38,856 bases of DNA, from contig CAZIVY010000249.1 in the NCBI GenBank assembly GCA_964542505.1, positions 1 through 38,856 of the forward strand. The letters are read 5' to 3'. The stretch comes from an uncultured Rhodospirillaceae bacterium. GTDB lineage: Bacteria > Pseudomonadota > Alphaproteobacteria > Ferrovibrionales > Ferrovibrionaceae. Position numbers and translations under genes: made by a program. This document shows, piece after piece, positions 24,176 to 38,856 of the stretch. The notes below the pieces were generated by a model, which was not told the DNA's origin, searched no databases, and saw only the letters and a list, made by a program, of their open reading frames with translations. The first letter of the stretch is position 1; every line of letters begins with the position of its first letter.

Positions 24176-24322
24176 TAGAGGCGGTTTCCTTTGCCCGCCA
24201 CGATTCGCCGGATACCGCATAAATGCCTTATTTAGGCGACTCTTGCCGCCACGCCCCGACAGGCGTATCTTGCTCGCGTGGTTGCTAGGCGGTTGCTAGC
24301 AACCAAAGCGAAAGGAAACTGC

Positions 24323-25588
24323 ATGAGCGGAACGCGGCGGATCACCAAACGGCTTGTCGATGCCTTGCGGCCCGGCGAAATAGCGTGGGACAGCGACGTA
24401 AGAGGGTTCGGCGTTCGCCGGCAACGCAAGGCGAAGATTTACGTCCTCAAGACACGCATCGGCGGGCGGGCGCGGTGGTTCGCCATCGGCGAGCATGGTG
24501 CGCCCTGGACGCCGGAAATGGCTAGGCGCGAGACGCGGCGCATCCTTGGCGAAGTCGCCGCCGGGCGCGATCCGGCGAAAATCCGCGACGATAAACGCAC
24601 CGCCGGGACGGTGGCCGAGCTGTGCGACGCCTACATGGCCGCCGCCCCTTCGCGGGTGCTCAAGAAATCGGGGCGCCCCAAGAAGCCTTCCACCCTGGCA
24701 ACCGACAAGGGGCGCGTCGAGCGGCATATCAAGCCGCTGTTGGGGCGGTTGCAAGTTGGGGCCGTGACAACCGAGGACGTGCGGCGCTTCCTGGCCGACG
24801 TGGCGGCGGGCAAGACGGCGGCCGACGTGCGGACGGGACCACGGGGCCGCGCCATCGTCGAAGGTGGCGAGGGCACGGCAAGCCGCACCGTTGGGCTTCT
24901 CGGCGGCATCTTTTCCTTTTCGGTCGAAAAGGGCTTGCGCGCCGACAATCCGGTGCGCGGCGTGGCGCGGTTCAAGGACCGCGAAGCCGAGCGTTATCTG
25001 TCGGCTGGCGAACTGGCGCGCCTAGGGCAAGCCCTGGCGGCGGCCGAACGAGCTGGCGAGAATCCGATGGCGGTTGCCGGCGTTCGGCTGCTGATTTTCA
25101 CCGGCGCGCGCAAGTCGGAAATCATGACGGCGCGATGGGATTACGTTGACGGTGAGCATGGCTATCTGCGCTTGCCGGATTCGAAGTCAGGGAAGAAGCT
25201 CTTACCCTTGGGCGCGCCGGCCCTTGACGTGCTGGCGAAGCTCCCGCGCATCGAGGGCAATCCCTACATACTGCCGGGCGAGAAACCGGGGGCGCCCTAT
25301 ACCGGGTTGCCGAAGGCATGGGAGCGCATCCGAGCGCGCGCCAAGCTCGGGGATGCGCGGCTGCACGATTTGAGACATTCGTTCGCCTCGGTCGGCGCGG
25401 CTGCCGGCGACAGCCTGATTATCATCGGCGCGCTACTCGGCCACCGCGACGCCAAGACCACGGCGCGCTACGCGCACTTGAGCAACGATCCAATCAAGGC
25501 CGCGGCAAACCGCATCGCCGGCACCATTGCGGCCACGATGGCTGGCGGCGGCGGCGAGGTTGTGCCGCTGGCGCAACGGCACGGCTGA
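24323..25588 (+). CDS. int: P4-type tyrosine integrase (DUF4102 N-terminal domain plus phage-integrase catalytic domain)
   Basis: Starts at ATG 24323 (AAGGAA upstream): MSGTRRITKRLVDALRPGEIAWDSDVRGFGVRRQ.... The C-terminus has RLHDLRHSFAS...LLGHRDAKTTARYAHL (catalytic R, H-x-x-R, Y). Confidence 0.9.
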   Translation: MSGTRRITKRLVDALRPGEIAWDSDVRGFGVRRQRKAKIYVLKTRIGGRARWFAIGEHGAPWTPEMARRETRRILGEVAAGRDPAKIRDDKRTAGTVAELCDAYMAAAPSRVLKKSGRPKKPSTLATDKGRVERHIKPLLGRLQVGAVTTEDVRRFLADVAAGKTAADVRTGPRGRAIVEGGEGTASRTVGLLGGIFSFSVEKGLRADNPVRGVARFKDREAERYLSAGELARLGQALAAAERAGENPMAVAGVRLLIFTGARKSEIMTARWDYVDGEHGYLRLPDSKSGKKLLPLGAPALDVLAKLPRIEGNPYILPGEKPGAPYTGLPKAWERIRARAKLGDARLHDLRHSFASVGAAAGDSLIIIGALLGHRDAKTTARYAHLSNDPIKAAANRIAGTIAATMAGGGGEVVPLAQRHG

Positions 25589-25618
25589 TTCAGCGCCAGC
25601 GGATGAGTGAGGGAAAAT

Positions 25619-26308
25619 ATGAAACGGATTGCGATTGGATTGTTGCTTGAACTCGCCTCGTGCGCCGCCCTGCCGCCTGATCGGCCGGCCGATCCCACCG
25701 TCATTCGGATTGCGCGGGACACTTGGCAATGGCTGGGCGGTTCCGATGCGACAATGCCCAGGATCATGATGAGCAGTGTTGCGGCGATTAGGCTGCGCAG
25801 CCGCAGCGGGGACGCTCCGGCAATGTACGATTGCGCCAGCACGACCATCTTTTTGCCGACTATGGAATCCCTGGAGCAGGCGCTGACCGAGCGCGGCGCT
25901 GGCGGCTCTGGTTCGTTGCTATTCTCCATCATGGTCGCGCACGAGCTGGCGCATCACCAGCAATGCCTGGATCGGAAGTTGCAGGTAAGCCGGGGCGCTC
26001 ACGATGACTGCATACTCGAAAAGGAAGCGACCACGGTCGAATTGCGTTTTCTCGATGAGTACTGGACCGTAATGCAACGAATAACGGTGGCGTTGAAGCG
26101 GATGCCGGACGATGGGGCGCGACTGGCGGCGATTCGAGAGGCCAGGCGACAGAGCGGGCTGGGCGACCTGTCCGACAGCGGAGCCGCCGAAGCGTTGCGA
26201 GCGCTGCAGGGGGTGCCGGAGGAAGAGTTGTTAAAGCCGGCGAGCGAGTCTTTCCCCGGTATCTACCGCGCCTCGGTCGAAGCGAGGTATCGCGCGCGGG
26301 GGTGTTAG
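25619..26308 (+). CDS. putative lipoprotein with an HExxH zinc-metalloprotease-like motif
   Basis: MKRIAIGLLLELASCAA is a lipobox-like L-A-S-C. An internal MVAHELAHHQQC supplies HExxH. No wider family was recognised by eye. Confidence 0.5.
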   Translation: MKRIAIGLLLELASCAALPPDRPADPTVIRIARDTWQWLGGSDATMPRIMMSSVAAIRLRSRSGDAPAMYDCASTTIFLPTMESLEQALTERGAGGSGSLLFSIMVAHELAHHQQCLDRKLQVSRGAHDDCILEKEATTVELRFLDEYWTVMQRITVALKRMPDDGARLAAIREARRQSGLGDLSDSGAAEALRALQGVPEEELLKPASESFPGIYRASVEARYRARGC

Positions 26309-26470
26309 CCGCCTGCCGCTCGCGGGCCGAAGGCGGCGAGGTTGTCTTGATGCCGAGGCGGGGGACGTAATCGAACCGGCGCGGCTAGGCCGACGGGCCG
26401 AACGCCGGGCACCGCACCCGGTTGCCGCGCCGACACTTCCTTGCGGATTCGCTCGCGTTGCGGAGGCGCC

Positions 26471-27004
26471 ATGCCTAAACCGGCTTACAAGGGCAAACTC
26501 GCGCAACCTTGGCGGCGACAAGAAGCGGATCGAGATCGGCTCCTTGCCGACATCCGTGAGAGAATCCGCTTGCTGTTCGTTCACTACGGGATATCGCCGC
26601 CCGATCCGGGAAAAGACCCACACTACTCCACCAACAATCCTTGGGTGCTTCTGGCGGTAAGCCTGGCGAGGGAGCATGTCCCAGGGCTGCACGTGTTAAG
26701 GGCAGGCCGCCCGGAGAGCACGGCAACAACCGCCGCCGCCAAGGCGCGACAAATCCTCGTCGCGCTCGTCGAATCGAGGCGCGGGAAGCACGGCGGCTCG
26801 ATTACCGATACGTGTCAATATTTTGCCGGGCGAGGGATTGGGAAACTACCCGAATACTATCGGACGAGGGAAAAGTTGAGCACCGACACACTTCGTGCCC
26901 ACGTCGCCCGCGAACGCCGGGAGTTTGCGGAGTGGAAAGCTCGCGTCGAGAGACTCATGCTGGAAGTTTCGGCTAATCGGGGATCGGGGAAGCGAGATAG
27001 ATAA
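26471..27004 (+). CDS. hypothetical protein (island cargo)
   Basis: ORF in the 26441-27004 frame. The ATG at 26471 has GGAGG 4 nt upstream. The codon usage looks coding, and no motif was recognised. Confidence 0.4.
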   Translation: MPKPAYKGKLAQPWRRQEADRDRLLADIRERIRLLFVHYGISPPDPGKDPHYSTNNPWVLLAVSLAREHVPGLHVLRAGRPESTATTAAAKARQILVALVESRRGKHGGSITDTCQYFAGRGIGKLPEYYRTREKLSTDTLRAHVARERREFAEWKARVERLMLEVSANRGSGKRDR

Positions 27005-27100
27005 TTCGGCTTCCGATTCTCTGGCAGATATTAAATCCAACTCCTTTTTTCTATCCGATGGGCGCCCGATATTCGCCCCATCCGCCGCGCGTGCGCGGCC

Positions 27101-27355
27101 TTGCGATGGAGACGACGAGTGCAAACCGATCACCCGCCCACCCGGCAGTCTGCCGGCGAAGTTTTCCTGAACCAGTGCGTCACCGCCGTTTTGCTTGGGC
27201 TTAGCGAGCGAACGCTCGAAAGGTTTCGCTTGGAGGGCAGCGGCCCGGCCTTTCGGAAGTTTGGTAGGCGGGTGCTGTACGCGCGCGCCGACGTGCTCGC
27301 CTGGGCCGACGCGCAGCGGCGCACCAGCACAAGCGATCCCGGCGAGGCCGCCTGA
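27101..27355 (+). CDS. AlpA/MerR-like HTH_17 DNA-binding protein (excisionase/regulator type)
   Basis: The segment VLLGLSERTLERFRLEGSGPAFRKFGRRVLYARADVLAWADAQ matches the AlpA-like pattern. It lies directly upstream of, and overlaps, the ATPase gene. The start is uncertain (TTG 27101 or GTG 27119). Confidence 0.65.
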   Translation: MRWRRRVQTDHPPTRQSAGEVFLNQCVTAVLLGLSERTLERFRLEGSGPAFRKFGRRVLYARADVLAWADAQRRTSTSDPGEAA

Positions 27356-28644
27356 TGGCCGCCGAATCCGACGCGGCCGCAGGGTTGGCCGCCTTCGATA
27401 AATTTTGCGCGGAAGAAAATCGCCTGCGTCCCTTCACTCCGCTAACGCCAGCGCACCGGCCGCGCCAAGCCGAGGACCAGGAGATGGAAGCCGAGGCCGG
27501 CGGCGTCGAAATCATCCGCGCCGACTCCATCAAGGTGGTGGGTATCAGGTGGTTGTGGTCCGGCTGGCTCGCTGCCGGCAAGTTGCACCTGCTGGCCGGC
27601 CAGGCCGGCACCGGAAAGACGACTATCGCGGTGGCGTGGGCGGCGACGATATCACGCGGCGGCTCTTTCCCCGACGGCACCCGCTGCGAGGCGGGATCGA
27701 CGTTGATGTGGTCAGGCGAAGATGACGTGGCGGACTCGCTGGTGCCGCGCTTCATGGCCAACGGTGGGGACGCCAGTAAATTTCATCTCGTCGTTGGCGC
27801 ACGCGACGAAGAAGGCCGGCGGCGTCCGTTCGATCCGGCGACGGACGTTCCCGCCCTGACGGCGGGCGCAAGGGGCGTGCCCGATCTGCGGCTGGTGATC
27901 GTCGATCCGGTAGTGCTGGCGGTTGCCGGCGACAGCCACAAGAATGCGGAAGTCCGGCGTGGCCTTCAACCCCTTGTCGATCTGGCGGCGGCGCTTGGCG
28001 TGGCGGTGCTGGGCATCACCCACTACAGCAAGAACACTTCCGGGCGCGATCCGCTAGAGCGCGTCACCGGCTCCCTGGCGTTCGGCGCCCTGGCGCGCGT
28101 CGTCCTGGGCACGGCAAAGCCCGCCAAGGATGGCCCGCCGCGCCGCCTGGTCCGCGTGAAGTCGAATGTCGGCCCCGATGGCGGCGGCTTCGAATATGAG
28201 CTTGTGCAACACGCTCTACGAGGCGCCGGCGGCCTATTCGGCCAGGCTGTTGTCTGGGGCGACGCCCTGGAAGGTTCCGCCCGCGACTTGTTCGCCGAGA
28301 TCGAGGCGCGCGAAGGCGACGAAGCGCCGGCCAGATCCGGCGCCGAAAGCTGGCTGCGCGACAGGTTGGCCAGCGGGCCGATGGACTCGGTGAAAGTCAA
28401 GATGGACGCCGAGGGCGCCGGCCTGTCGTGGGCCACCGTCCGACGGGCGCAAAAGGCGCTGGGGGTTGTCACCACCAAGGACGGGATGGAGGGGGGCTGG
28501 CGGTGGCGCTTGCCGCCGAAGGTGCTCACCGCCGCCGAAGATGCTCACCACGAAGGGGTGAGCGCCTTCGGGAAATCCGCCATTTCTAGCCCGGCCTTGA
28601 GCACCTTCGAGAAAGACGATTCCGGCGACGTGGAGGAGTTCTGA
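27355..28644 (+). CDS. RepA-like AAA_25 / RecA-fold ATPase (island replication/helicase-loader type)
   Basis: 429-aa ORF with Walker A LLAGQAGTGKTT, Walker B LRLVIVDPV, and THYSKNTSGRDPLERVTGSLAF, all typical of AAA_25 proteins found beside AlpA in integrative islands. Confidence 0.78.
   Translation: MAAESDAAAGLAAFDKFCAEENRLRPFTPLTPAHRPRQAEDQEMEAEAGGVEIIRADSIKVVGIRWLWSGWLAAGKLHLLAGQAGTGKTTIAVAWAATISRGGSFPDGTRCEAGSTLMWSGEDDVADSLVPRFMANGGDASKFHLVVGARDEEGRRRPFDPATDVPALTAGARGVPDLRLVIVDPVVLAVAGDSHKNAEVRRGLQPLVDLAAALGVAVLGITHYSKNTSGRDPLERVTGSLAFGALARVVLGTAKPAKDGPPRRLVRVKSNVGPDGGGFEYELVQHALRGAGGLFGQAVVWGDALEGSARDLFAEIEAREGDEAPARSGAESWLRDRLASGPMDSVKVKMDAEGAGLSWATVRRAQKALGVVTTKDGMEGGWRWRLPPKVLTAAEDAHHEGVSAFGKSAISSPALSTFEKDDSGDVEEF
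28516..28571. repeat. iteron-like cluster 1: three copies of CCGAAG-NN-GCTCACC (two direct, one inverted)
   Basis: 28516-28530 ccgaaggtgctcacc; 28535-28549 ccgaagatgctcacc; 28557-28571 ggtgagcgccttcgg (reverse complement ccgaaggcgctcacc). Confidence 0.6.
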
Positions 28645-28645
28645 C

Positions 28646-29308
28646 ATGCCGGCGTCGGCGTTGCTGACCGATTTGACCCGAGCGGGTTTTACCATCCAGG
28701 CCGACGGCGGGCGGCTGGTAGTCGGCCCCGCAAGCAAACTGACGGACGAAACGCGCCAGGTCATCCGGCTGCACAAGGCCGAATTGCTGGCAGAGATAAC
28801 CGCCAGGGTGTCGTCACCGAAGCTGCTCACCGGGGCCGAAGATGCTCATCGAAATGGTGTGAGCGCCTTCGAGAAAAGCGAGCATCTTCGGGCGGAGCGC
28901 GACCGGTACGAGGAACGCACCGCCACCACCGAGTTGCGGGAGCCGCCGCACGCCAGCCCGCTGGCGCAATGGCGCGCCGGCATTGCCCGCCTGTCCCCCG
29001 CGTCGCCGCCTGTCGGCTTCACGCCCCGGCGGTGGGCCGAGGTGCTGGCCGACGCCAATCGCTTCCTGGCGCGATGGGGCGGGCAGGCCGAGGCTTTGGG
29101 CTGGGAGACGTTGGACTTGTTCGCCGTCGACCCGCGCGCCCCGGACGCCCGTTACGACAGCATGGGGCTGGTGGTGGTGTTGGACGGCAGCGAGGTGATC
29201 GCTATCGCGCCTGACCAGGCGAAGGTGCGTACCAGCACGGGCAAGGTGCAGACCTTCTACCTCAGCCCGCGCGTGGAGGCGGTGGCGGTCTGGGAGTTGG
29301 GACTGTGA
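28646..29308 (+). CDS. hypothetical protein with a TubC_N-like N-terminal module
   Basis: The N-terminus LLTDLTRAGFTIQADGGRLVVGPASKLTDETRQVIRLHKAELLAEI resembles the small docking-type domain common in island/plasmid replication modules. It starts 1 nt after the ATPase stop. Confidence 0.45.
   Translation: MPASALLTDLTRAGFTIQADGGRLVVGPASKLTDETRQVIRLHKAELLAEITARVSSPKLLTGAEDAHRNGVSAFEKSEHLRAERDRYEERTATTELREPPHASPLAQWRAGIARLSPASPPVGFTPRRWAEVLADANRFLARWGGQAEALGWETLDLFAVDPRAPDARYDSMGLVVVLDGSEVIAIAPDQAKVRTSTGKVQTFYLSPRVEAVAVWELGL
28817..28891. repeat. iteron-like cluster 2: four copies of the same 15-bp motif (two direct, two inverted)
   Basis: 28817-28831 ccgaagctgctcacc; 28836-28850 ccgaagatgctcatc; 28856-28871 ggtgtgagcgccttcg (inverted); 28878-28891 gcgagcatcttcgg (inverted). 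Confidence 0.6.
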
Positions 29309-29383: not shown

Positions 29384-31438
29384 CTAGTGTTCCTCTCCGA
29401 ATAGGCAAGTGCCCATGATCCGCGGGCCATCTGGGCTGCTTGCGGCAAAGAGCAGGAGAGGAACCTTTGGGTGCCAGGCGGGGTCCCATTCGTCGTCAAG
29501 TGAGGTCGTTATTTGGACTATGCTGGACGGCTGTTCTGTTCGGGTGACATAGACGTCCCAGTTGCCCTTCGCCTTCGACGCAAACGCAATCCAATTGCCA
29601 TCGGGAGACACAGCGGGGTCCCATTCGTCGGCAGGCGAGCCATAGAATAAATCTGGCAATTCCGAGCCGTGAGCAAGCCTGAAAATATCAAAGTTTCCGT
29701 TCTTGTTTGAGATGAAATAGACAGACTTGTCTGGCGCAATGGCGGGGCGCCACTCCTCCCATGGCGTGTCAGTCATCTTTGCGAGACGTTGGGTTGTCGA
29801 ATGCAGGCGATATAGATCAGGCGGCTGCCGCGAGGAGGTATTTGCGCCCGCAAATACAATCTCTTCTCCGGATACCGCAGGGATAGAGCCGCTTATGCCC
29901 TTGTCACCGAATAGCATCTCGCGGGTCGCGAACGATGGCCACTGCCGAGCCATCAGGCGCTCAATGCTTCTGGGATTTTGCTTGTCGAATCCCTGACCAA
30001 AGACAATTTCGAAAGTGTCGCTTGAGGATGAAAGGAACGCTGGGTGACGCTCGCTCGCTGTCACAACTTCTGGTGACAAGTCTATCACTTCGCGCCTCAC
30101 CGAATCGTATGCCCTTATTCGATCGCGACCACCCTTCCAAGTCTGGAAGAGCAACCATCTGCCATTGTCCGGCGAAAGACTCGGATACCGGCCTGATTCG
30201 GCAAGGAGCTGCCTAACAGGCGCCGATGCGACTTCCGTGGCTGCCAGTTTGCAACGCGAAGCCATATCAGGAGGGCTCAAGATGCCGGTTTCTATCGCCT
30301 TGGTCTGGAGCGTCGCTCCCAGCAGTGGCGCAAGATGCTCTGCAACAATATGGCCAATGGCCGTTGAGCCGCGATTGTTGAAATGAATATTGTCTTTTAA
30401 GAATGCCCACGATTTCGGCGCAGGCAGAGCCGCGTCGAGGTCGATCAGCACCGATTTTGTTTCAGCGGCAACACGCCTGATGGACTCATTGAATACGGCT
30501 TGCGGCTCGGATGCGACTCCAAGGGGTTGGGTCATGAGTGCTGGTTGCATGTCGTAGGCGCGGGCGATGCTCACAAATATCCGCAGGTTCCGCTCGAAGA
30601 GCAAGCGATGCTCGTCAAAGTTCGGGTCTGGAAAGTTAATATTTGACTCCCCTACAGAAACTCCAACTGTTTCGCCAGTCCATGCGTTGAATCTCGCGAC
30701 TGCATTACGCGCGAGAAATAAGATGTTACTTCGATAGGACACGTAATCCCACGAGGAATGCATCAGGCCGCGAGCTGACGCGAATACTGCAGCGCTAGAC
30801 ACGGGGGGGTCGGTTCCAAGACGTCCGGTATAGTTGCCCTGAATGGCAAGGCGCAGGCGGTCATTGATGTTTTCCATCAGCACAGCGACGGACGCATCAA
30901 GTAATCCCGGCCGGTTGAGCAACGCGTTGATGTTGTCCTGCGTAGTGTGGCCGCGAACCCCGGCATTGAGGGTCCGGACGCGGACGCCTGCGGAATTGAG
31001 GGCAGACCCTACAACTGCCGGAAACCGGAACGCCTCATCGACCTCATTTGACTCCGTTGTAGATCCGCCAAGGAAGAGAATCTTTGTCGCTGCATCGGAA
31101 TCATTGTTGGATTTGATGTATCCCAGATCATCAGTTCGAAACATCCTTGGCGCATGCCGCGAGAGCGTGCCAGCCGCATCACGGTCTCCGGGCAGAAACT
31201 CGTGTCGGATCGACGGGGCAAGGTTCAATGTCGTTGTGCGGAAGTATGCCGCTTCTTCTCGGAATTTGCGCGATTCCTCGCGGATAATTCCGGTTTCCCC
31301 AATCCGGCCAGCAGCGAAATCGAGTGTTACGAACGCCGTCGCGAGAATAGCCAGGATTGCCAAGGAGCCTAGAATTCTAATTCTATTAGATGCCACACTT
31401 GCACGCCTAGCCCACTCGTTTCTCATGTTGCGCGCCAA
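29384..31438 (-). CDS. membrane-anchored SGNH/GDSL-type hydrolase fused to a TolB-like (PD40/WD40-like) beta-propeller; fifth gene of the hxs operon
   Basis: 684-aa ORF with one N-terminal TM (ILGSLAILAILATAFVTL). SGNH blocks: ILFLGGSTTE (block I Ser), ENIND (block III), DNIHFN (block V D-x-x-H). The C-terminal repeats SLSPDNGRWLLF, PAIAPDKSVYFISNKNGNFDIFRL, PAVSPDGNWIAFASKAKGNWDVYV and DEWDPAWHP are typical of TolB-type propellers. It starts 8 nt after the hxsC stop. Confidence 0.7.
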   Translation of the reverse strand: MARNMRNEWARRASVASNRIRILGSLAILAILATAFVTLDFAAGRIGETGIIREESRKFREEAAYFRTTTLNLAPSIRHEFLPGDRDAAGTLSRHAPRMFRTDDLGYIKSNNDSDAATKILFLGGSTTESNEVDEAFRFPAVVGSALNSAGVRVRTLNAGVRGHTTQDNINALLNRPGLLDASVAVLMENINDRLRLAIQGNYTGRLGTDPPVSSAAVFASARGLMHSSWDYVSYRSNILFLARNAVARFNAWTGETVGVSVGESNINFPDPNFDEHRLLFERNLRIFVSIARAYDMQPALMTQPLGVASEPQAVFNESIRRVAAETKSVLIDLDAALPAPKSWAFLKDNIHFNNRGSTAIGHIVAEHLAPLLGATLQTKAIETGILSPPDMASRCKLAATEVASAPVRQLLAESGRYPSLSPDNGRWLLFQTWKGGRDRIRAYDSVRREVIDLSPEVVTASERHPAFLSSSSDTFEIVFGQGFDKQNPRSIERLMARQWPSFATREMLFGDKGISGSIPAVSGEEIVFAGANTSSRQPPDLYRLHSTTQRLAKMTDTPWEEWRPAIAPDKSVYFISNKNGNFDIFRLAHGSELPDLFYGSPADEWDPAVSPDGNWIAFASKAKGNWDVYVTRTEQPSSIVQITTSLDDEWDPAWHPKVPLLLFAASSPDGPRIMGTCLFGEEH

Positions 31439-31446
31439 TTGGCAGA

Positions 31447-32667
31447 TCAGTTCGCGGCAGCGCTTACGAAAGGCCGAATATGCGAACTATAACGCACCTT
31501 TGCAGACGAGAAAAACCCGCCGCAGTTTTCCCTCTCAGCGCAACCGGCGCACTCAGGCATGTGTTCGTTTTTCCAATCGCTTATCGAGCGCCGCGCAAAG
31601 GTCCACAAACGGCGATCGAGCACACAAAGTTGATGATTGTAAATTGACACATGGAGATGATGATCGGCCAGCGTTGTAGCAGCCCTGTATAGTTCGCGCT
31701 GATAGTCGAAGGGATCAATCCAGAGGTCTGGGAGATTTGCTTTTGTGAATCCCATCATCTCCAAACCCATAAGCGCCACGTGATCCACGAAAATCAGATT
31801 GCGTGCGATGAAATCAGCCAGTTGCGGAAGCCGTTCATAGGTCTGCTTGTGAACGACTACGCGTATTTCGACCTTCTGTCGATGGCGCTTTAGATTGAGG
31901 ATGCCTCGAATAGTCTCGTCATACGCTCCATCCGCCTGGACAACGTAGTCGTGGACGGTCGAAAGATCGGAATAGAGCGGGATTCCCATCATCAAGTCCG
32001 GGTGCTCGACGCTCGCGACCTTTTTGGCCAAGCTCGCATCTGAGAAATTGCGGCCATTGGAAAGTACGTGAACCGCCGTATTAGGCAGGTAGTTCTTTGC
32101 GAGCCGCAGGAGATCAATAAAACGGTCGCCGAGCAATGTCGGTTCGCCGCCTGTGAATCCAATCTCGCGGGTCGCGGGATCAATAAGCGGAATTGCTTCC
32201 GAAATTTCGTCAACAATCCACGAATCCTGTACATCTCGCGGCGGCTGCGAACACATAAGGCAATACGAATTACAGCGCTCCGTCACAAGAAAACTGTTGT
32301 GTGGCGAGTTGCGACGATAGAGGACACGAATTGTTCCGTCCCTCTGATCGAATCCTAAAACGTCACCGTCGCCAAGGTACTGGTAATCATCAGGCAATAC
32401 GACTGCCGAAGCTCCTTCTGGCGGTGTACCTACAAAGCCCGAGTTACGAAGATAGACATAGAGAGAGAATCCATCCGGTGCGACACCACTGTTGACCAAG
32501 AACGCTTCTCGCGCTTTGAGCGGAGCCGGCCGGAGCGGGTTTGTTGTCAGTCGGACAACGAATCGGCCACGGTCCGTTGGCACATTGAGGAATTCAAGCC
32601 CGCCGCTGCGCAGTTTCAGCATGCTACCGCCTAACCCAGCCAAGGAAGACGCGGCGCACTTCTTCAT
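31447..32667 (-). CDS. hxsC: His-Xaa-Ser system radical SAM maturase (HxsC-type)
   Basis: 406-aa ORF with the radical SAM motif ERCNSYCLMC (CX3CX2C) and a C-terminal Cys cluster PECAGCAERENCGG. It lies in an operon with the HxS-repeat precursor. The start is uncertain: 32667 overlaps hxsB by 44 nt, while the alternative ATG at 32622 lies 1 nt after the hxsB stop. Confidence 0.78.
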   Translation of the reverse strand: MKKCAASSLAGLGGSMLKLRSGGLEFLNVPTDRGRFVVRLTTNPLRPAPLKAREAFLVNSGVAPDGFSLYVYLRNSGFVGTPPEGASAVVLPDDYQYLGDGDVLGFDQRDGTIRVLYRRNSPHNSFLVTERCNSYCLMCSQPPRDVQDSWIVDEISEAIPLIDPATREIGFTGGEPTLLGDRFIDLLRLAKNYLPNTAVHVLSNGRNFSDASLAKKVASVEHPDLMMGIPLYSDLSTVHDYVVQADGAYDETIRGILNLKRHRQKVEIRVVVHKQTYERLPQLADFIARNLIFVDHVALMGLEMMGFTKANLPDLWIDPFDYQRELYRAATTLADHHLHVSIYNHQLCVLDRRLWTFARRSISDWKNEHMPECAGCAERENCGGFFSSAKVRYSSHIRPFVSAAAN

Positions 32668-34117
32668 CCTGCCGCATCAGCGTGATTAGGTGCCGGAAGA
32701 TTGCCATGTTCCGATTGCAAAAGTCCGACAGCGGCTTACGGCCAACGAAGTCGCCCCAAGTGGCGTGGTGGAACACAGGATCGGCACCACAATATGGTTC
32801 GAACGCGCACTCGGAGCACATTGGCGCCGACCCCGCGAAAGACGCTTCTAGCGGATCGAGCAGTGCATCAGACAGGAAGATGGATTCGTAGCTGTCCGAG
32901 TGGACATTGCCAAGGCGAAACGTCTTATCGCCCATTTCTGCCAACATTCGGCCTTCGTCTGCTGCATACACGTCGCCATCGTAGTTGTAAACAACTGCAG
33001 CGATGCCGATCCCGGACGGACTCGTTAAATCGACGTAGCCCGCATCGAAGGGCGTCAGCATCTTAGTTAGGATCGTGGCGGCATAGTGCTCCGGGAAGAA
33101 GTACCCGCCGCGATTCAATTCGATTATGTAATTGAGTCCCTCCTTGTAGAAGCGCAGCCACTTTTCCGCGTCATACGCCGCATGCATCTTCGTCTTGATG
33201 GCGAAGCCATACGGCGAGAGTGGCCGCAAAAAGATGCCTTCTAGCCCCTGTGCCACGTACTCATCGATTATTTCGCGGACACGATCCAAACTACGCGCCG
33301 TCGTAGTCATGAGTGCACCTACTCGATCACGCCCAAGCATGGCGCGCGCTCGGTTGATGCCGGCAATCGTTCGGTCGTAACTATCGCCGCCGGGCCGTGG
33401 GCGGTTCTTGTTGTGCAAATCGCGCGGACCATCCAGCGATGTCGATATAAGGATGTTGTGCTCACGGCAAAACGAAAGAATTTCATTCGTGATAAGCGCG
33501 AGGTTCGATGTGATGACAAATTCCAGGGCGCGTTTCGCCGTCTCGTTTACGCGCTTCGCCTCTATGACGACGTGTCGGATCAAGTCGAAATTTAGTAATG
33601 GCTCGCCGCCTTGGAATTCGATCTTGAGGTGTGGCGATGGTGAACGAAACACGAGCTCCAATGCCTTGTCCGCAGTCTCGAGTGTCATATCGAAAGCGAC
33701 CTTATCGCTGCTTCGTCGCGATACTTGGCAGTAGCCGCACGAATGTTCGCATCGCAATGAAACAACGAACATGTGCAAGCCAGTGAAGTCCGCTAACCGC
33801 TTTAGCTTCGTCCTGACTTTCAGCGCCAAGAGATCGGCCGCAATGTCTGAGTCGCCATCTGTGAGAAAGTGCTTCGCCTTCAAGTCGCCGAACCATGCAG
33901 AGGACGTCGGCAACTGATGGCGAACGAATGAGGCAAGGGTGGTTCTATCTAGGACGACAAACTCACCGGCCTGATTGGTGGCGACGTAATCGTTTTCATC
34001 GAGTCGTGTGAACCGGAAGGGCAGAAGCTTGTAGCCGTCAGCTAGCGGAGCTTCGAAATGGTCCAGCGAGAGAAATCTACCGGTCATCTCCCTGGAGACC
34101 TGTCCTAGAGAAGGCAT
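32624..34117 (-). CDS. hxsB: His-Xaa-Ser system radical SAM/SPASM maturase (HxsB-type)
   Basis: 497-aa ORF with the radical SAM motif LRCEHSCGYC (CX3CX2C) and a C-terminal SPASM-like cluster APMCSECAFEPYCGADP...FCNRN. The B-versus-C naming rests on size and SPASM content recalled from the TIGRFAM definitions. Alternative start at 34087. Confidence 0.78.
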   Translation of the reverse strand: MPSLGQVSREMTGRFLSLDHFEAPLADGYKLLPFRFTRLDENDYVATNQAGEFVVLDRTTLASFVRHQLPTSSAWFGDLKAKHFLTDGDSDIAADLLALKVRTKLKRLADFTGLHMFVVSLRCEHSCGYCQVSRRSSDKVAFDMTLETADKALELVFRSPSPHLKIEFQGGEPLLNFDLIRHVVIEAKRVNETAKRALEFVITSNLALITNEILSFCREHNILISTSLDGPRDLHNKNRPRPGGDSYDRTIAGINRARAMLGRDRVGALMTTTARSLDRVREIIDEYVAQGLEGIFLRPLSPYGFAIKTKMHAAYDAEKWLRFYKEGLNYIIELNRGGYFFPEHYAATILTKMLTPFDAGYVDLTSPSGIGIAAVVYNYDGDVYAADEGRMLAEMGDKTFRLGNVHSDSYESIFLSDALLDPLEASFAGSAPMCSECAFEPYCGADPVFHHATWGDFVGRKPLSDFCNRNMAIFRHLITLMRQDEEVRRVFLGWVRR

Positions 34118-34415
34118 AGGCTAAGATGGCGTTACGCGCAGCCTCGGTTTCTCGCGCAACAGTGCGCCGCAAGTCCTGGTCTAGTACTTCATTGCGAAAC
34201 TCGTTGACAACGCGCTCAACCGTTTCCGCATCCTTGCCCGGAAGAACTGTGACGGTACAAGAAATTTCGGCGTCCGATATGGAGAAGTCGAACGCCGCAA
34301 GATTGGTCAACCGATAGGCAGCTTTTTTTACCGTTTCGAGGTCGTAGACCTTTGTCGAAAACGAAACTATTGCAGAAGCTCCTGCGACGGCCCGCCCATC
34401 GGCCACGTTCGTCAC
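34077..34415 (-). CDS. hxsD: His-Xaa-Ser system protein HxsD-type (small accessory protein)
   Basis: 112-aa ORF between the precursor and the maturases. The GTG start overlaps the hxsA stop (GTGA). The C-terminal NEVLDQDLRRTVARETEAARNAILAYAFS resembles what I recall of HxsD. Confidence 0.65.
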   Translation of the reverse strand: MTNVADGRAVAGASAIVSFSTKVYDLETVKKAAYRLTNLAAFDFSISDAEISCTVTVLPGKDAETVERVVNEFRNEVLDQDLRRTVARETEAARNAILAYAFSRTGLQGDDR

Positions 34416-34690
34416 TGACTGGACGAATAGTGCGAATAGTGGCTTGAGTGCGACTGATGCGACTGATGCGACATATGCGAACGGTGGTACGTGGTTTGGA
34501 TCGGCGACCCGTCGCTCCGTTCCAAGACGAATTCATCAACCAATTGTCCGTTCCCAGTTAAGGCCGACTCCGCTTGTACCGCCTGTGTCGTCTCGGGAAT
34601 CACTGATGCGCTGGACGTTCCCAACGCAAGCGACAAGAGCGCTGCCACCGAAACCGCCAATGGTGAAAGAAATGGACGCTTCTTACCCAC
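34412..34690 (-). CDS. hxsA: His-Xaa-Ser repeat precursor protein (HxsA-type) with an N-terminal signal peptide
   Basis: 92 aa. MGKKRPFLSPLAVSVAALLSLALGTSSASV is a Sec-type signal. The C-terminus is Y-HRS-HMS-HQS-HQS-HSS-HYS-HYS-SSQ. GTG start at 34690 with AGGAGG 6 nt upstream. Confidence 0.85.
   Translation of the reverse strand: MGKKRPFLSPLAVSVAALLSLALGTSSASVIPETTQAVQAESALTGNGQLVDEFVLERSDGSPIQTTYHRSHMSHQSHQSHSSHYSHYSSSQ
34424..34486 (-). repeat. seven tandem 9-nt (His-Xaa-Ser) coding repeats
   Basis: Codon-by-codon reading of the minus strand gives CAC/CAT-NNN-TCG/AGC x7. On the plus strand this appears as cga-nnn-gtg/atg periodicity (e.g. gactgatgc gactgatgc gacatatgc). Confidence 0.85.
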
Positions 34691-34735: not shown

Positions 34736-35470
34736 ATGTACTATATTGATGAGTCAAACAAGCAAGAGGCTCAATTGCACCGACTACATAGGCCGCAAGT
34801 CCTAGTAGGCCCGTTCTTGATACTCGCATTGGCGAGCTTCTTGACGCTCCCTGCAACGAATGTTCTTGCTCACGGTGGTGGCCTTGACGGCCTAGGTTGC
34901 CACCACGACCGGAAGGTCGGCGGCTACCATTGCCACCGAGGCGCGTTGGCCGGCCAGTCCTTCGCCTCCAAAGTCGAAGCCGAGCGGGCACTCCGAGGCG
35001 CACGAGAAGCGCCGCCGCAAGCGATGCCAGCCCCAACTCGACCGGCGCCGGCAACAGCCGAGATCGCGGGCCAGGCCTCCGTGATTGATGGCGATACCAT
35101 TGAAATCCACGGCCGGCGCATCCGCCTGCACGGAATCGACGCCCCCGAGAGCGGGCAGGACTGCAAGGCTGGCGGCCAGACCTATCGGTGCGGCCAGAAG
35201 GCTGCCGTGGCGTTGGCGGACAAGATTGGGCGCCAGACCGTCAGTTGCGACCAGCGCGACACCGACAGGTATGGCCGGGCCGTAGCAGTGTGCAGGATCG
35301 GGGCGGAAGACCTAAGCGCATGGCTGGCGCTCGAAGGCTGGGCGCTCGCCTACCGGGAATACTCAAGAGATTACATTTGGGCCGAGGATGCGGCGAAGAA
35401 AGCCGGGAAGGGGGTATGGGCCGGCGAGTTCGAGGCGCCGTGGGACTGGCGAAAGAAGAAACAGCGATGA
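34736..35470 (+). CDS. secreted thermonuclease (SNase-like) with an N-terminal His/Cys-rich YHYH-like motif
   Basis: ASVIDGDTIEIHGRRIRLHGIDAPE...DRYGRAVAVC...EGWALAYREY are staphylococcal-nuclease-family motifs. Upstream lie HGGGLDGLGCHHDRKVGGYHCH and a hydrophobic signal (VLVGPFLILALASFLTLPATNVLA). The likely true start is TTG 34775, with AAGAGG 5 nt upstream. Confidence 0.78.
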   Translation: MYYIDESNKQEAQLHRLHRPQVLVGPFLILALASFLTLPATNVLAHGGGLDGLGCHHDRKVGGYHCHRGALAGQSFASKVEAERALRGAREAPPQAMPAPTRPAPATAEIAGQASVIDGDTIEIHGRRIRLHGIDAPESGQDCKAGGQTYRCGQKAAVALADKIGRQTVSCDQRDTDRYGRAVAVCRIGAEDLSAWLALEGWALAYREYSRDYIWAEDAAKKAGKGVWAGEFEAPWDWRKKKQR

Positions 35471-36071: not shown

Positions 36072-36992
36072 ATGCGCATCAACCTCGTAGTCGCCGTCAC
36101 CGATGATGATTGGTTCGAGATGCTTCGTCGGCATCCGAACCTCAGCGAGGTCAACTTCTGGGCACCTTCAGCGGCGAATTTCCGCGCGCTCCAGCCCGGC
36201 GAGATGTTTCTGTTCAAGCTACATGCGCCCCGCAATGTGATCGTTGGCGGCGGGATATTCGCCCATGCCAATGTGCTGCCCTGCTCCCTCGCCTGGGCAG
36301 CGTTCGGCGAAGCGAACGGCGCGCGTTCGGCGCAGGAGATGCGTGTGCGCATTGGCCGTTATCGCAGAACCGGTGAGAGCGACCGGGGCGACTTTGCGAT
36401 CGGTTGCCGCATCCTGACCCAGCCCTTCTTCTTCGAGGAACCCGATTGGATTCCCGTGCCGCCAGGCTGGTCACCGAACATCGTATCTTTCAAGACCTAC
36501 AACACAGGCAATGCTGACGGTTTTGATCTGTGGGAAGCGGTCAACGATCGCCTGAACCGGCACCTCGGTCCGGGGATGCCCGAGGCCAGCGAGCGATTTG
36601 GAGAGCCGCACCTTATCCGGCCCCGGCTCGGACAAGGCGCATTCCGCGTGCTGGTTACAGACATCTACCTTCGGCGCTGCGCGGTCACGCAGGAGCGGAC
36701 GCTGCCAGCTCTCGAAGCGGCGCATATCCGTCCGTATAGCGATGGTGGTGAGCACGAGGCTCGGAATGGGCTCTTGCTACGGCGCGATATTCATAGCCTG
36801 TTCGACGCCGGCTATGTGACGGTTACGCCCGACCTTCGCTTCGAGGTTAGCCGGCGGATTCGGGAAGAGTTTGAGAACGGCAAACACTATTACGCCCTTC
36901 ACGGTCAACGAATCAGCGCGCCGGCGGAAATCGGCCAACGTCCTGATCCAAACGCCCTGACCTGGCACAACGATCATTGTTTTAGGGGATGA
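36072..36992 (+). CDS. HNH endonuclease (HNH_2/PF13391-like) with a PUA/EVE-like N-terminal domain
   Basis: The C-terminal LGQGAFRVLVTDIYLRRCAVTQERTLPALEAAHIRPYSDGGEHEARNGLLLRRDIHSLFDAGYV is the PF13391-type HNH signature. The N-terminal 180 aa (FWAPSAANFRALQPGEMFLFKLHAPRNVIVGGGIF) looks PUA-like. That domain call is inference. Confidence 0.78.
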   Translation: MRINLVVAVTDDDWFEMLRRHPNLSEVNFWAPSAANFRALQPGEMFLFKLHAPRNVIVGGGIFAHANVLPCSLAWAAFGEANGARSAQEMRVRIGRYRRTGESDRGDFAIGCRILTQPFFFEEPDWIPVPPGWSPNIVSFKTYNTGNADGFDLWEAVNDRLNRHLGPGMPEASERFGEPHLIRPRLGQGAFRVLVTDIYLRRCAVTQERTLPALEAAHIRPYSDGGEHEARNGLLLRRDIHSLFDAGYVTVTPDLRFEVSRRIREEFENGKHYYALHGQRISAPAEIGQRPDPNALTWHNDHCFRG

Positions 36993-36995
36993 TCG

Positions 36996-37931
36996 GTGGC
37001 GCCTATGACAGATGGCGACCGGGACGCCTTGATGCGCATGGCGGCCGTCGAGCATGTGCGAAGGTTGGGCGAGGTTCACGATCACCTGACCGCCACCGAG
37101 TTGAAGCCCGGCTTCTATTTCGAGGGTGAGCGAATACCGCTCATCAATCCACAGCGCGGCATCTTCAAGCCAAAGCAGATGCGGTTCTTGCTTTCGATCA
37201 GGACCGTCTTTCCGAAGCCGGGCGGCAAGGTCTGGTATGACGATCAGCGCGAGGTGCATCGCCAGATTTTTGAGGGCGACGAGTCGATCGACTACGCCTT
37301 TATGGGCAAGGACCCCGATGCCGCTGATAACCGCTGGCTTCGCGAGGCGTTTGAGAAGCGGATACCGATCATCTATTTCCTCGGAATTGCGCCGGGCCGC
37401 TACCAAGCCATGCTTCCGGCCTTCATTTCCGGGTGGGACGCCAAGGCGTTAATGGCGCGGGTCGCGTTCGGAGTGCCCGGTCAAGAGGCGCTGGCGCCGC
37501 CCGAGAATGCCTTGGAACGGCGTTACGCCCTGCGCGCAGTCAAGCAACGGCTGCATCAGGCGTCGTTCCGCGAAGCCGTCATCACCGCCTATAATGGCCG
37601 TTGCGCGCTGTCGGGCCTGCCTGAGCCGATGCTGTTGGACGCCGCCCACATCGTTGCGGACACGGACGAGCGGCTCGGACAGCCAGTGGTGCCCAACGGC
37701 ATCCCATTGTCGAAAATCCATCACGCCGCCTTCGATGCCCACCTGATCGGCATCGACCCTGACTATCGGCTGCATGTGTCCGAGCGGCTGCTCGGGCGGA
37801 ATGATGGCCCGATGCTCGAAGCCCTGAAACAGTTGAAGGGCGGAACCATCCATTTGCCGAACCGCCCCAAGGACTGTCCGGATCGAGACCGGCTCGCCTT
37901 GCGCTTCGAGCGCTTCAAGGCGGCGGCGTGA
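36996..37931 (+). CDS. HNH endonuclease (HNH_2/PF13391-like) with a different, SRA-like N-terminal domain
   Basis: The C-terminal FREAVITAYNGRCALSGLPEPMLLDAAHIVADTDERLGQPVVPNGIPLSKIHHAAFDAHLIGI is a second PF13391-type HNH. The N-terminus (RGIFKPKQM...SIRTVFPKPGGKVWYDDQ...IPIIYFLGIAPGRY) is unrelated to that of the upstream gene. It starts 3 nt after the upstream stop. Confidence 0.78.
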   Translation: MAPMTDGDRDALMRMAAVEHVRRLGEVHDHLTATELKPGFYFEGERIPLINPQRGIFKPKQMRFLLSIRTVFPKPGGKVWYDDQREVHRQIFEGDESIDYAFMGKDPDAADNRWLREAFEKRIPIIYFLGIAPGRYQAMLPAFISGWDAKALMARVAFGVPGQEALAPPENALERRYALRAVKQRLHQASFREAVITAYNGRCALSGLPEPMLLDAAHIVADTDERLGQPVVPNGIPLSKIHHAAFDAHLIGIDPDYRLHVSERLLGRNDGPMLEALKQLKGGTIHLPNRPKDCPDRDRLALRFERFKAAA

Positions 37932-38197: not shown

Positions 38198-38668
38198 TCA
38201 GGCGTCGAACCCGGCGCGTCCAATGCGCCGTCGGATAAACCCCGCGACATATGCATCGCCGCCGGCAATCCGCTGAATCAACGCTTCGTCGTCGAGTTCG
38301 TCGGCCGGATGCAGGACAAGGTGATCCCTGAGCAGGCCGTGGACTTGCGCCCGGATGCGCTGAAGCGCGGCGACTGCCGTATGATTGCCAGCCTCCTTCG
38401 CCGCCTCGTAATCGGCCAATAGATCGGCCAGGAACCGCCCAACGGAGTCCATCGAGGAAATTCTCGCCGCATCGACAAAGGCGCGGACTGTTAGCATCAC
38501 GTTACCCCGCTTGGCGAACCGGCACGCCGCCACCCGGAGCGCTTCCGGGGTCCAATTCTTGCGCTTGGTGAAGACCTGCCGATAGGCGTCGGTGTAGGTC
38601 CAGCCTGTGGAAACAAGCGTGGCAAACTTGCGCTCGCGGGATTCCATGCTGGCTTTGGCGTAAGTCAT
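38198..38668 (-). CDS. phage terminase small-subunit-like protein (tentative)
   Basis: The ATG at 38668 has GGGAGA 9 nt upstream. The N-terminus ...RERKFATLVSTGWTYTDAYRQVF...ALRVAACRFAKRGNV fits the HTH pattern of small terminases. The track ORF start at 38743 is less likely. Confidence 0.4.
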   Translation of the reverse strand: MTYAKASMESRERKFATLVSTGWTYTDAYRQVFTKRKNWTPEALRVAACRFAKRGNVMLTVRAFVDAARISSMDSVGRFLADLLADYEAAKEAGNHTAVAALQRIRAQVHGLLRDHLVLHPADELDDEALIQRIAGGDAYVAGFIRRRIGRAGFDA

Positions 38669-38856
38669 GGCCGAAAATCTCCCACAGCAGCCAAAATCCC
38701 GCCTGGTTTTCGCGTGCCCCGCAATGAGATTGCCCCCGCTCACGCGCGAAGCCGCCAGGGGGGCTGGCCTGTCTCGTCCGGCGCGGGATCGCGGGGCTTG
38801 CTTGCGCCGCTCAACCCGCCGTCACTCCGTCCGGTAGCGCGCGGGCTTGCAAAAGA

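Follow-up and report, generated by a model that had tools for sequence, protein, structure and literature searches.

Hxs systems are defined by four genes, both in the NCBIfam model names and in the 2026 paper on the HXS anti-phage system (Li et al., Nat Commun 2026, PMC13128918). The locus described here raises the question of whether a fifth gene can belong to such a system, and what its product would do there. The window is a stretch of 38,856 nucleotides from an uncultured Rhodospirillaceae bacterium (contig CAZIVY010000249.1, assembly GCA_964542505.1). The gene at 29384..31438 on the minus strand lies directly downstream of hxsC. Its product, identified from the open reading frame (ORF) call, Pfam and NCBIfam matches, a family alignment and an AlphaFold2 model, combines a transmembrane (TM) anchor with an SGNH esterase domain, followed by a TolB-like β-propeller of six blades. 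We refer to it as the SGNH-propeller gene and count residues from the ATG at 31426. It is a dedicated, optional, Hxs-dependent accessory of a subset of systems with short (HxsA2-type) peptides, and not a general fifth component.

By all of its sequence and fold features, the protein is a member of the SGNH/GDSL superfamily, and esterase or acyl-transfer activity is predicted. The hydrolase domain covers residues ~57–395 (30242..31258, minus strand; Pfam, alignment and model), in which blocks III and V are separated by a family-specific helical insertion. The propeller follows at residues ~400–680 (29387..30229, minus strand; Pfam, NCBIfam, model and Foldseek). Pfam Lipase_GDSL_2 (PF13472) matches residues 122–358 with 39.5 bits (cutoff 32.9), and PD40 scores 44.8 bits (cutoff 20.9). 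Block I is GGSTTE with the catalytic Ser122 (codon 31061-31063, minus strand), block II is NAGVRGHT with Gly156, block III is ENIND with Asn188, and block V is Asp345-Asn-Ile-His348 (30383-30394, minus strand). In an alignment of 50 homologs with 30–54% identity, S122, G156, N188, D345 and H348 are invariant in 50/50. The first-pass annotation, made from the letters alone, had described a membrane-anchored SGNH esterase fused to a TolB-like propeller, with motifs GGSTTE, ENIND and DNIHF and PD40-type repeats. The motifs are present, and the fusion is confirmed by the Pfam and NCBIfam hits, the AlphaFold2 model and Foldseek. That annotation had also considered that the catalytic set might be missing from the structure; the set is intact, and the fold matches are SGNH folds.

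The AlphaFold2 model of the full-length protein, built from the 50-homolog alignment, has a predicted local distance difference test score (pLDDT) of 91.9 and a predicted template-modelling score (pTM) of 0.87. It consists of a long N-terminal helix, an α/β domain at residues ~57–395 and 24 strands at residues 405–674, which form six four-stranded blades, in agreement with the PD40 repeats read from the sequence. In Foldseek, the whole model retrieves TolB (E 4e-14) together with S9 peptidase propellers (8wt1, 5yzm), and TolB is also the best match in a profile search of the PDB (E 1e-24). As the full-length Foldseek search is dominated by propellers, the SGNH domain was modelled on its own (pLDDT 86.7). 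This model matches LAE5, the acetyl-xylan esterase Axe2, TesA, EstA and 4rsh with target-side TM-scores of 0.65–0.83, and PatB appears lower down. The propeller is not found throughout the family. P0089, P0105 and P0114 (L095, L096) are only 384–402 residues long and retain the TM anchor and all SGNH motifs. The TM-SGNH unit, rather than the propeller, appears to be the conserved core of the family.

The sole hydrophobic segment of the protein is residues 16–40 (31307..31381, minus strand), which agrees with the single N-terminal TM helix of the first-pass annotation. An arginine-rich stretch, with several arginines, stands ahead of it, and in the model the segment is part of a helix at residues 2–56. 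The protein has two cysteines, C392 and C674, each kept in 49/50 homologs, and these probably form a disulfide bond. From the positive-inside rule, this conserved cysteine pair and the PD40 fold, we infer that the anchor is oriented N-in/C-out and that the catalytic domain and the propeller are on the periplasmic side.

The spacing and composition of the gene tie it to its neighbors. The ORF encodes 684 residues from a TTG start at 31438. Other in-frame starts are an ATG at 31426 (680 residues, the form used by NCBI) and a GTG at 31396 (670 residues), and the choice among the three is ambiguous. The stop codon of hxsC is at 31447-31449, which leaves 8 nt before the TTG, as originally noted, or 20 nt before the ATG. 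A consensus scan of the junction finds neither a promoter-like nor a terminator-like site, either of which had been named beforehand as a sign of independent expression, and we infer that hxsC and the SGNH-propeller gene are co-transcribed. The shared low guanine-plus-cytosine (GC) content noted earlier is also seen here: the gene has a GC fraction of 0.552, hxsA-D range from 0.532 to 0.552, and the genes flanking on either side range from 0.63 to 0.69. The edges of the low-GC block coincide exactly with the five genes hxsA-D-B-C and the SGNH-propeller gene. Together with hxsA-D-B-C, the gene forms a single low-GC cassette that was acquired horizontally and lies in an integrative island.

The B, C and D genes, all on the minus strand, place the locus in the Hxs family. 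The radical S-adenosylmethionine (SAM) maturase gene hxsC (31447..32667) matches TIGR03977 with 406.5 bits, and the radical SAM/SPASM maturase gene hxsB (32624..34117) matches TIGR03978 with 630 bits, both above cutoff; hxsD (34077..34415) matches TIGR03976 with 60.3 bits (cutoff 50). The fourth gene (34412..34690, minus strand) encodes a short HxsA2-like precursor of 92 residues, with a signal peptide and a C-terminal ...HRSHMSHQSHQSHSSHYSHYSSSQ. The signal peptide and the tandem H-x-S repeats are visible, but the best-fitting NCBIfam model, HxsA2, gives 34.8 bits where the cutoff is 48. HxsA homologs from linked loci exceed this cutoff. The window peptide falls under every NCBIfam HxsA cutoff, so automated annotation would probably leave the gene unnamed and the operon seemingly incomplete. 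Pfam finds no domain in it, and thus no peptidoglycan-binding domain.

In the published HXS system, the radical-SAM-matured effector HxsA acts in the periplasm and phage DNA entry is blocked (PMC13128918). The SHRSS motif in the last HxsA repeat is essential for defence and is the site of a +8 Da modification, and the peptidoglycan-binding domain is essential in the canonical (E. coli) HxsA. A survey of 10,369 canonical HxsA proteins found four genes in the order D-B-C-A in >99.8% of systems. The paper mentions no esterase, TolB-like or carbamoyltransferase partner and reports no toxicity of the four-gene system. The window resembles this system (TIGR03976-03979) in its HxsB, HxsC and HxsD, in a putative HxsA precursor with a signal peptide and HxS repeats and in an effector expected in the periplasm. 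It differs in gene order (A-D-B-C) and in the short HxsA without a peptidoglycan-binding domain. It also differs in the fifth gene, to which related loci add a sixth and a seventh, encoding SxtJ/DUF5989 and a carbamoyltransferase.

If the SGNH-propeller gene belongs with Hxs, its relatives should also be found beside hxs genes, and this is the case. A one-genome-per-species scan using two SGNH peptide motifs of the family alone found 13 full-length relatives, in Reyranella, Hyphomicrobiales, Rhodospirillaceae, Nitrospinota, Limnohabitans, Oxalobacteraceae, Neopusillimonas and others. Genes for HxsB and HxsC are ≤3 kb away in 12 of these 13 loci. In the remaining one (L006), the 5.7-kb contig breaks off just upstream of the SxtJ–carbamoyltransferase–SGNH-propeller block it shares with its relatives. 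Eight further homologs on long metagenomic contigs were inspected, and 7/8, including the propeller-less P0089 and P0114, adjoin HxsD and twin radical SAM genes. The unlinked homolog, P0028, is 1.9 kb from a contig end, beside an insertion sequence element. Taken together, 19 of 21 independent loci of the family have hxs genes within ≤8 kb, and both exceptions are at contig edges. In two linked loci, hxsB itself looks interrupted: it is apparently split or frameshifted in L005 (L005:12425-13874, two overlapping tblastn pieces) and is called as two ORFs (238 and 250 residues) in the P0114 locus. Decay of the two systems or errors in sequencing may account for this.

Alpha- and Betaproteobacteria and Nitrospinota all show the linkage, and at least five gene arrangements occur. 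The gene comes right after hxsC with 0–9 nt spacing in the window, L002, L007, L010 and L045; it is divergent from hxsA/D in L001, L013, L003/L101 and L103, upstream of hxsA in L005 and L102, and convergent in L104. Two other genes lie between hxsC and it in L008, L009, L011 and L012. The family is very rare: clustered at 50% identity, the hits of an exhaustive profile search over 1.84 billion representatives comprise ~40 full-length and ~20 SGNH-only clusters, and all others are unrelated multi-PD40 proteins. With only ~60 clusters, chance adjacency to hxs is not credible. Searches of plasmids by protein and by DNA found zero copies.

The opposite direction gives a different result. Among 80 metagenome loci anchored on HxsC (the best matches to the HxsC alignment), only three contain the gene (L033, L040 and L045), and another, L048, terminates in an SxtJ gene. 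The fraction is 3/11 for loci with at least 2.5 kb of flank on both sides, and 3/20 for loci with at least 1 kb of flank on both sides and complete hxsB and hxsC. Most hxs loci lack the gene, which is therefore an optional accessory rather than a general component. The co-occurrence with hxsABCD that the first-pass annotation proposed to test thus holds from the SGNH-propeller gene to hxs and fails from hxs to the gene. The same annotation had proposed to look for absence of the gene from other hxs loci; this looks in the wrong direction, because the informative direction is from the gene to hxs, and in this direction the association is near-obligate.

The distribution over HxsB lineages fits an accessory that comes and goes. 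Loci with the gene fall into nine HxsB clusters and are interleaved with confirmed negatives: L031 and L065 lie within the Limnohabitans-type positives, and L021 lies near the window. This interleaving indicates repeated gain or loss. Pairwise identities of the SGNH-propeller protein and HxsB are correlated (Pearson/Mantel r 0.63, reached by 0/2000 permutations), and the Spearman coefficient is 0.25. With these two values and the interleaving of positives and negatives over the nine clusters, strict co-phylogeny with HxsB is rejected.

We also compared the HxsA peptides. In linked loci HxsA has 81–104 residues with HxsA2 as best NCBIfam match, except in L003/L101 and L104 (236–273 residues), and many loci without the SGNH-propeller gene also have short HxsA2 peptides. 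In L003/L101 the gene accompanies a 273-residue HxsA with a Pfam-confirmed peptidoglycan-binding domain, and in L104 a 236-residue HxsA. We examined the idea that the protein replaces the missing peptidoglycan-binding domain of short HxsA and rejected it as a general rule, because short HxsA2 is common without the gene and long HxsA occurs alongside it. The type of the last HxS repeat does follow the gene. With duplicates removed, it is H-x-S-S in 20/20 loci with the gene (HYSS in 18) and in 9/17 loci without it, while H-x-S-G is found in 0/20 and 7/17, respectively (Fisher p 2e-4 to 2e-3, uncorrected for phylogeny). The H-x-S-S contrast persists within single HxsB clusters. SHYSS, the last repeat in the window, corresponds by homology to SHRSS, where the published modification maps.

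Additional partners were sought by clustering all ORFs of 94 loci (L097 and L102 were fetched afterwards). Beyond HxsA-D and the SGNH-propeller protein, there are only two recurrent neighbors: the small membrane protein SxtJ/DUF5989 and a protein of ~615 residues. The latter is a NodU/CmcH-type carbamoyltransferase with Carbam_trans_N and Carbam_trans_C domains. The pair is present in 12 loci with the SGNH-propeller gene, about half of the linked loci, in several arrangements (L006-L012, L033, L040, L045, L097 and L102; e.g. L009:7558-9950). A comparable gene set is known from saxitoxin clusters, where contiguous sxtI (carbamoyltransferase), sxtJ, sxtK and sxtL (GDSL lipase) are assigned to carbamoylation and SxtL is the proposed decarbamoylase (PMC2679770).

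What, then, would the protein do? The substrate that it tailors is probably either the exported His-x-Ser peptide or the cell envelope. The reading that we put forward, with about as much reason to accept it as to doubt it, is hydrolysis or transfer, in the periplasm, of an O-linked acyl or carbamoyl group on matured HxsA, at the terminal H-Y-S-S. HxsB, HxsC and HxsD would modify HxsA, which would then be exported to the periplasm. There the SGNH domain would remove the O-linked group or transfer it, most likely at the Ser and Tyr hydroxyls of the last H-Y-S-S repeat. The propeller of the full-length forms would serve as a peptide-binding platform, and the outcome of the tailoring would be a tuned or activated effector. 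The donor chemistry could come, in about half of the loci, from the co-located cytoplasmic carbamoyltransferase with its SxtJ/DUF5989 membrane partners, by analogy with sxtI-J-K and sxtL.

Several points weigh against action on HxsA. HxsA is a predicted substrate, and the enzymes nearest to the SGNH domain in fold do not act on peptides but are generic esterases for small acyl groups and carbohydrates. Canonical HXS is functional with four genes, and its +8 Da modification is not an acyl mass (PMC13128918). Propeller-less forms exist, so the propeller is not essential for the core function. The terminal-repeat contrast ignores kinship among the loci, and 6/17 loci without the gene have an HxsA that ends in HYSS. 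The rank correlation of co-divergence with HxsB is low, and the window itself has no carbamoyltransferase and SxtJ/DUF5989 pair. Finally, a Dehalococcoidales metagenome-assembled genome (L014:8295-12010) encodes a distantly related 338-residue TM-SGNH protein that shares the motif signature of the family (GGSTT-NEV, MHNINDR, D-x-x-H), followed by SxtJ and a carbamoyltransferase, amid glycosyltransferases and an exosortase-like gene and without hxs. This cassette suggests an ancestral role in tailoring envelope glycans.

The chief rival, which we hold to be possible though rather unlikely, is tailoring of the cell envelope. The SGNH domain would de-O-acylate, decarbamoylate or acylate peptidoglycan, lipopolysaccharide or exopolysaccharide and leave HxsA untouched; this would change the barrier to phage DNA, or the matrix holding the short HxsA, in cooperation with Hxs. 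Besides the glycan cluster of L014, it is favored by the acetyl-xylan esterases among the fold neighbors and by the peptidoglycan O-acetyltransferase PatB at lower rank. NodU/CmcH-type carbamoyltransferases normally act on sugar hydroxyls, and the requirement of canonical HxsA for a peptidoglycan-binding domain implies that the wall matters to the system. However, an envelope substrate leaves unexplained both the hxs linkage in 19/21 loci and the tracking of the H-x-S-S terminal repeat of HxsA, and the window contains no membrane acyl carrier of the MBOAT or AT3 type. The action on HxsA also has a more elaborate form, modelled on the membrane passage of acetyl by PatA/PatB or OatA. Here a carbamoyl group would reach the periplasmic side by way of the carbamoyltransferase and SxtJ/DUF5989, and the SGNH domain would add it to, or remove it from, the Ser/Tyr hydroxyls of the HxS peptide. 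We consider this relay unlikely. If true, it would be a second, post-export maturation step of an anti-phage effector and would give the SxtJ and SxtK families their first assigned role.

The remaining alternatives keep the link to Hxs in another form or dispense with it. It is decidedly unlikely that the esterase is a regulator or immunity factor that inactivates, turns over or sequesters mature HxsA and so limits self-harm, such as interference with DNA uptake, conjugation or the envelope of the host cell itself. Such genes are often optional and dependent on their system, as this one is, and the cassette is carried on mobile islands, some adjoining conjugation genes. TolB binds the TolB-box peptides of colicins, and the propeller could likewise capture a disordered peptide. 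This idea is opposed by the many short-HxsA loci without the gene and by four-gene HXS not being reported as toxic. A non-catalytic role, in which the propeller tethers a short HxsA at the inner membrane, would make use of a known peptide- and protein-binding module and would suit an HxsA of the window type, which has no peptidoglycan-binding domain as required by canonical HxsA. We find it very unlikely, as the catalytic residues are invariant in all 50 homologs and propeller-less, catalytically intact forms are still linked to hxs; moreover, short HxsA2 peptides occur in many loci without the gene, and the gene occurs alongside long HxsA in L003/L101 (273 residues, with the peptidoglycan-binding domain) and L104 (236 residues). 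Defence islands gather unrelated genes and most hxs loci lack this one, so it could be a passenger that merely neighbors hxs. This seems the most improbable of all given the near-obligate linkage over phyla and at least five arrangements, spacing in several loci that is tight enough for translational coupling, and GC block edges identical to those of the hxs genes. The rarity of the family (~60 clusters in 1.84 billion representatives) likewise makes chance adjacency implausible.

The surroundings of the cassette are those of an integrative island. The integrative-island backbone at 24278-29308 includes a P4-type integrase (24278-25588; Arm-DNA-bind_3 and Phage_integrase domains) and an int-alpA RNA (26378-26446; RF02996, 47.5 bits). 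The island also encodes an AlpA-like HTH_17 protein and an AAA_25 protein, and the same island gene set is found in L103 together with hxs, the SGNH-propeller gene and a gene with an SNase domain. ARAGORN finds no flanking tRNA that could be the attachment site, and a direct-repeat search gives no convincing att pair. A 60-nt direct repeat (28516-28575 and 28817-28876, 83% identical) encodes LT[A/G]AEDAH..GVSAF; one copy is near the C-terminus of the AAA_25 protein and the other is about one third into the next ORF. On the other side of the cassette, a gene on the plus strand (34736-35470) encodes a secreted-looking nuclease with a hydrophobic N-terminus and YHYH and SNase domains. It is divergent from hxsA and has a GC fraction of 0.633, thus lying outside the low-GC cassette. 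SNase genes recur next to hxs in L018, L097, L103 and the P0114 locus. It is suggestive that a nuclease expected in the periplasm lies beside a system that stalls phage DNA on its way in. Further along, the plus strand has two paralogous HNH_2 endonuclease genes side by side (36072-36992 and 36996-37931), which are matched by HNH and type II restriction-like models of PADLOC and may form a further defence module in the island. The ORF at 38198-38743 was considered as a small terminase, like those beside the cassette in L097 and L100, and dropped as it has no Pfam hit.

Several known systems share parts of this design. TolB of the Tol-Pal system (TIGR02800) has the same six-bladed PD40 propeller, is the best PDB match by profile and by fold, and is periplasmic, as is predicted for our protein. 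In contrast, our protein is membrane-anchored, fused to an esterase, without the TolA-binding N-terminal domain and outside a tol-pal operon. It was rejected as a TolB member: it matches positions 253-389 of 418 of the profile, with 43.5 bits against a cutoff of 343, and its neighbors are hxs and island genes. S9 prolyl-oligopeptidases and acylaminoacyl-peptidases also fuse a propeller to a Ser-His-Asp hydrolase, and their propeller chooses peptide substrates, a likeness by analogy only; they differ in that our hydrolase has the SGNH fold and not the α/β-hydrolase fold, the two domains come in the opposite order and the propeller is built of six PD40 blades.

Among extracytoplasmic SGNH enzymes, PatA/PatB, OatA and AlgI/AlgJ/AlgX combine a membrane-tethered or membrane-associated SGNH domain outside the cytoplasm with a cytoplasmic donor and membrane partners, and PatB is among the fold matches. 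The family described here lacks an MBOAT or AT3 partner, its candidate partners are SxtJ/DUF5989 and the carbamoyltransferase, and its match to PatB is weaker than that to generic esterases. The likeness to saxitoxin sxtI-J-K-L is seen in the half of the loci with an adjoining NodU/CmcH-type carbamoyltransferase, SxtJ and/or DUF5989 and the GDSL/SGNH hydrolase. It is a likeness in gene content. The differences are that the window has no carbamoyltransferase, that our hydrolase has a TM anchor and, in most cases, a fused propeller, and that the setting is a defence operon resembling those for ribosomally synthesized and post-translationally modified peptides, whereas that of the sxt genes is alkaloid biosynthesis. 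By analogy, the protein may work like the propeller-hydrolase fusions and the extracytoplasmic SGNH tailoring enzymes, and it is a member of neither family.

In public databases, members of the family are named 'hypothetical protein', 'lysophospholipase L1-like esterase' or 'Tol biopolymer transport system component'. The first-pass annotation had called the gene previously unlinked to Hxs, and we found no such link in full-text literature searches, the 2026 HXS paper, PADLOC, NCBIfam or the source annotations. PADLOC has a model for neither the gene nor Hxs, and the radical SAM genes give weak viperin-like hits only; NCBIfam has no model for the family. The ~60 protein clusters now labelled 'hypothetical' or 'lysophospholipase L1-like esterase' should count as Hxs-associated. 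They point to a variant of the system in environmental Alpha- and Betaproteobacteria and Nitrospinota, which would combine a short effector peptide without a wall-binding domain, a dedicated periplasmic esterase and often a carbamoyltransferase module. This variant offers an additional component with defined catalytic residues (S122 and H348), a predicted site of action at the terminal H-Y-S-S and a chemical hypothesis, namely that an O-acyl or O-carbamoyl group would be added or removed there.

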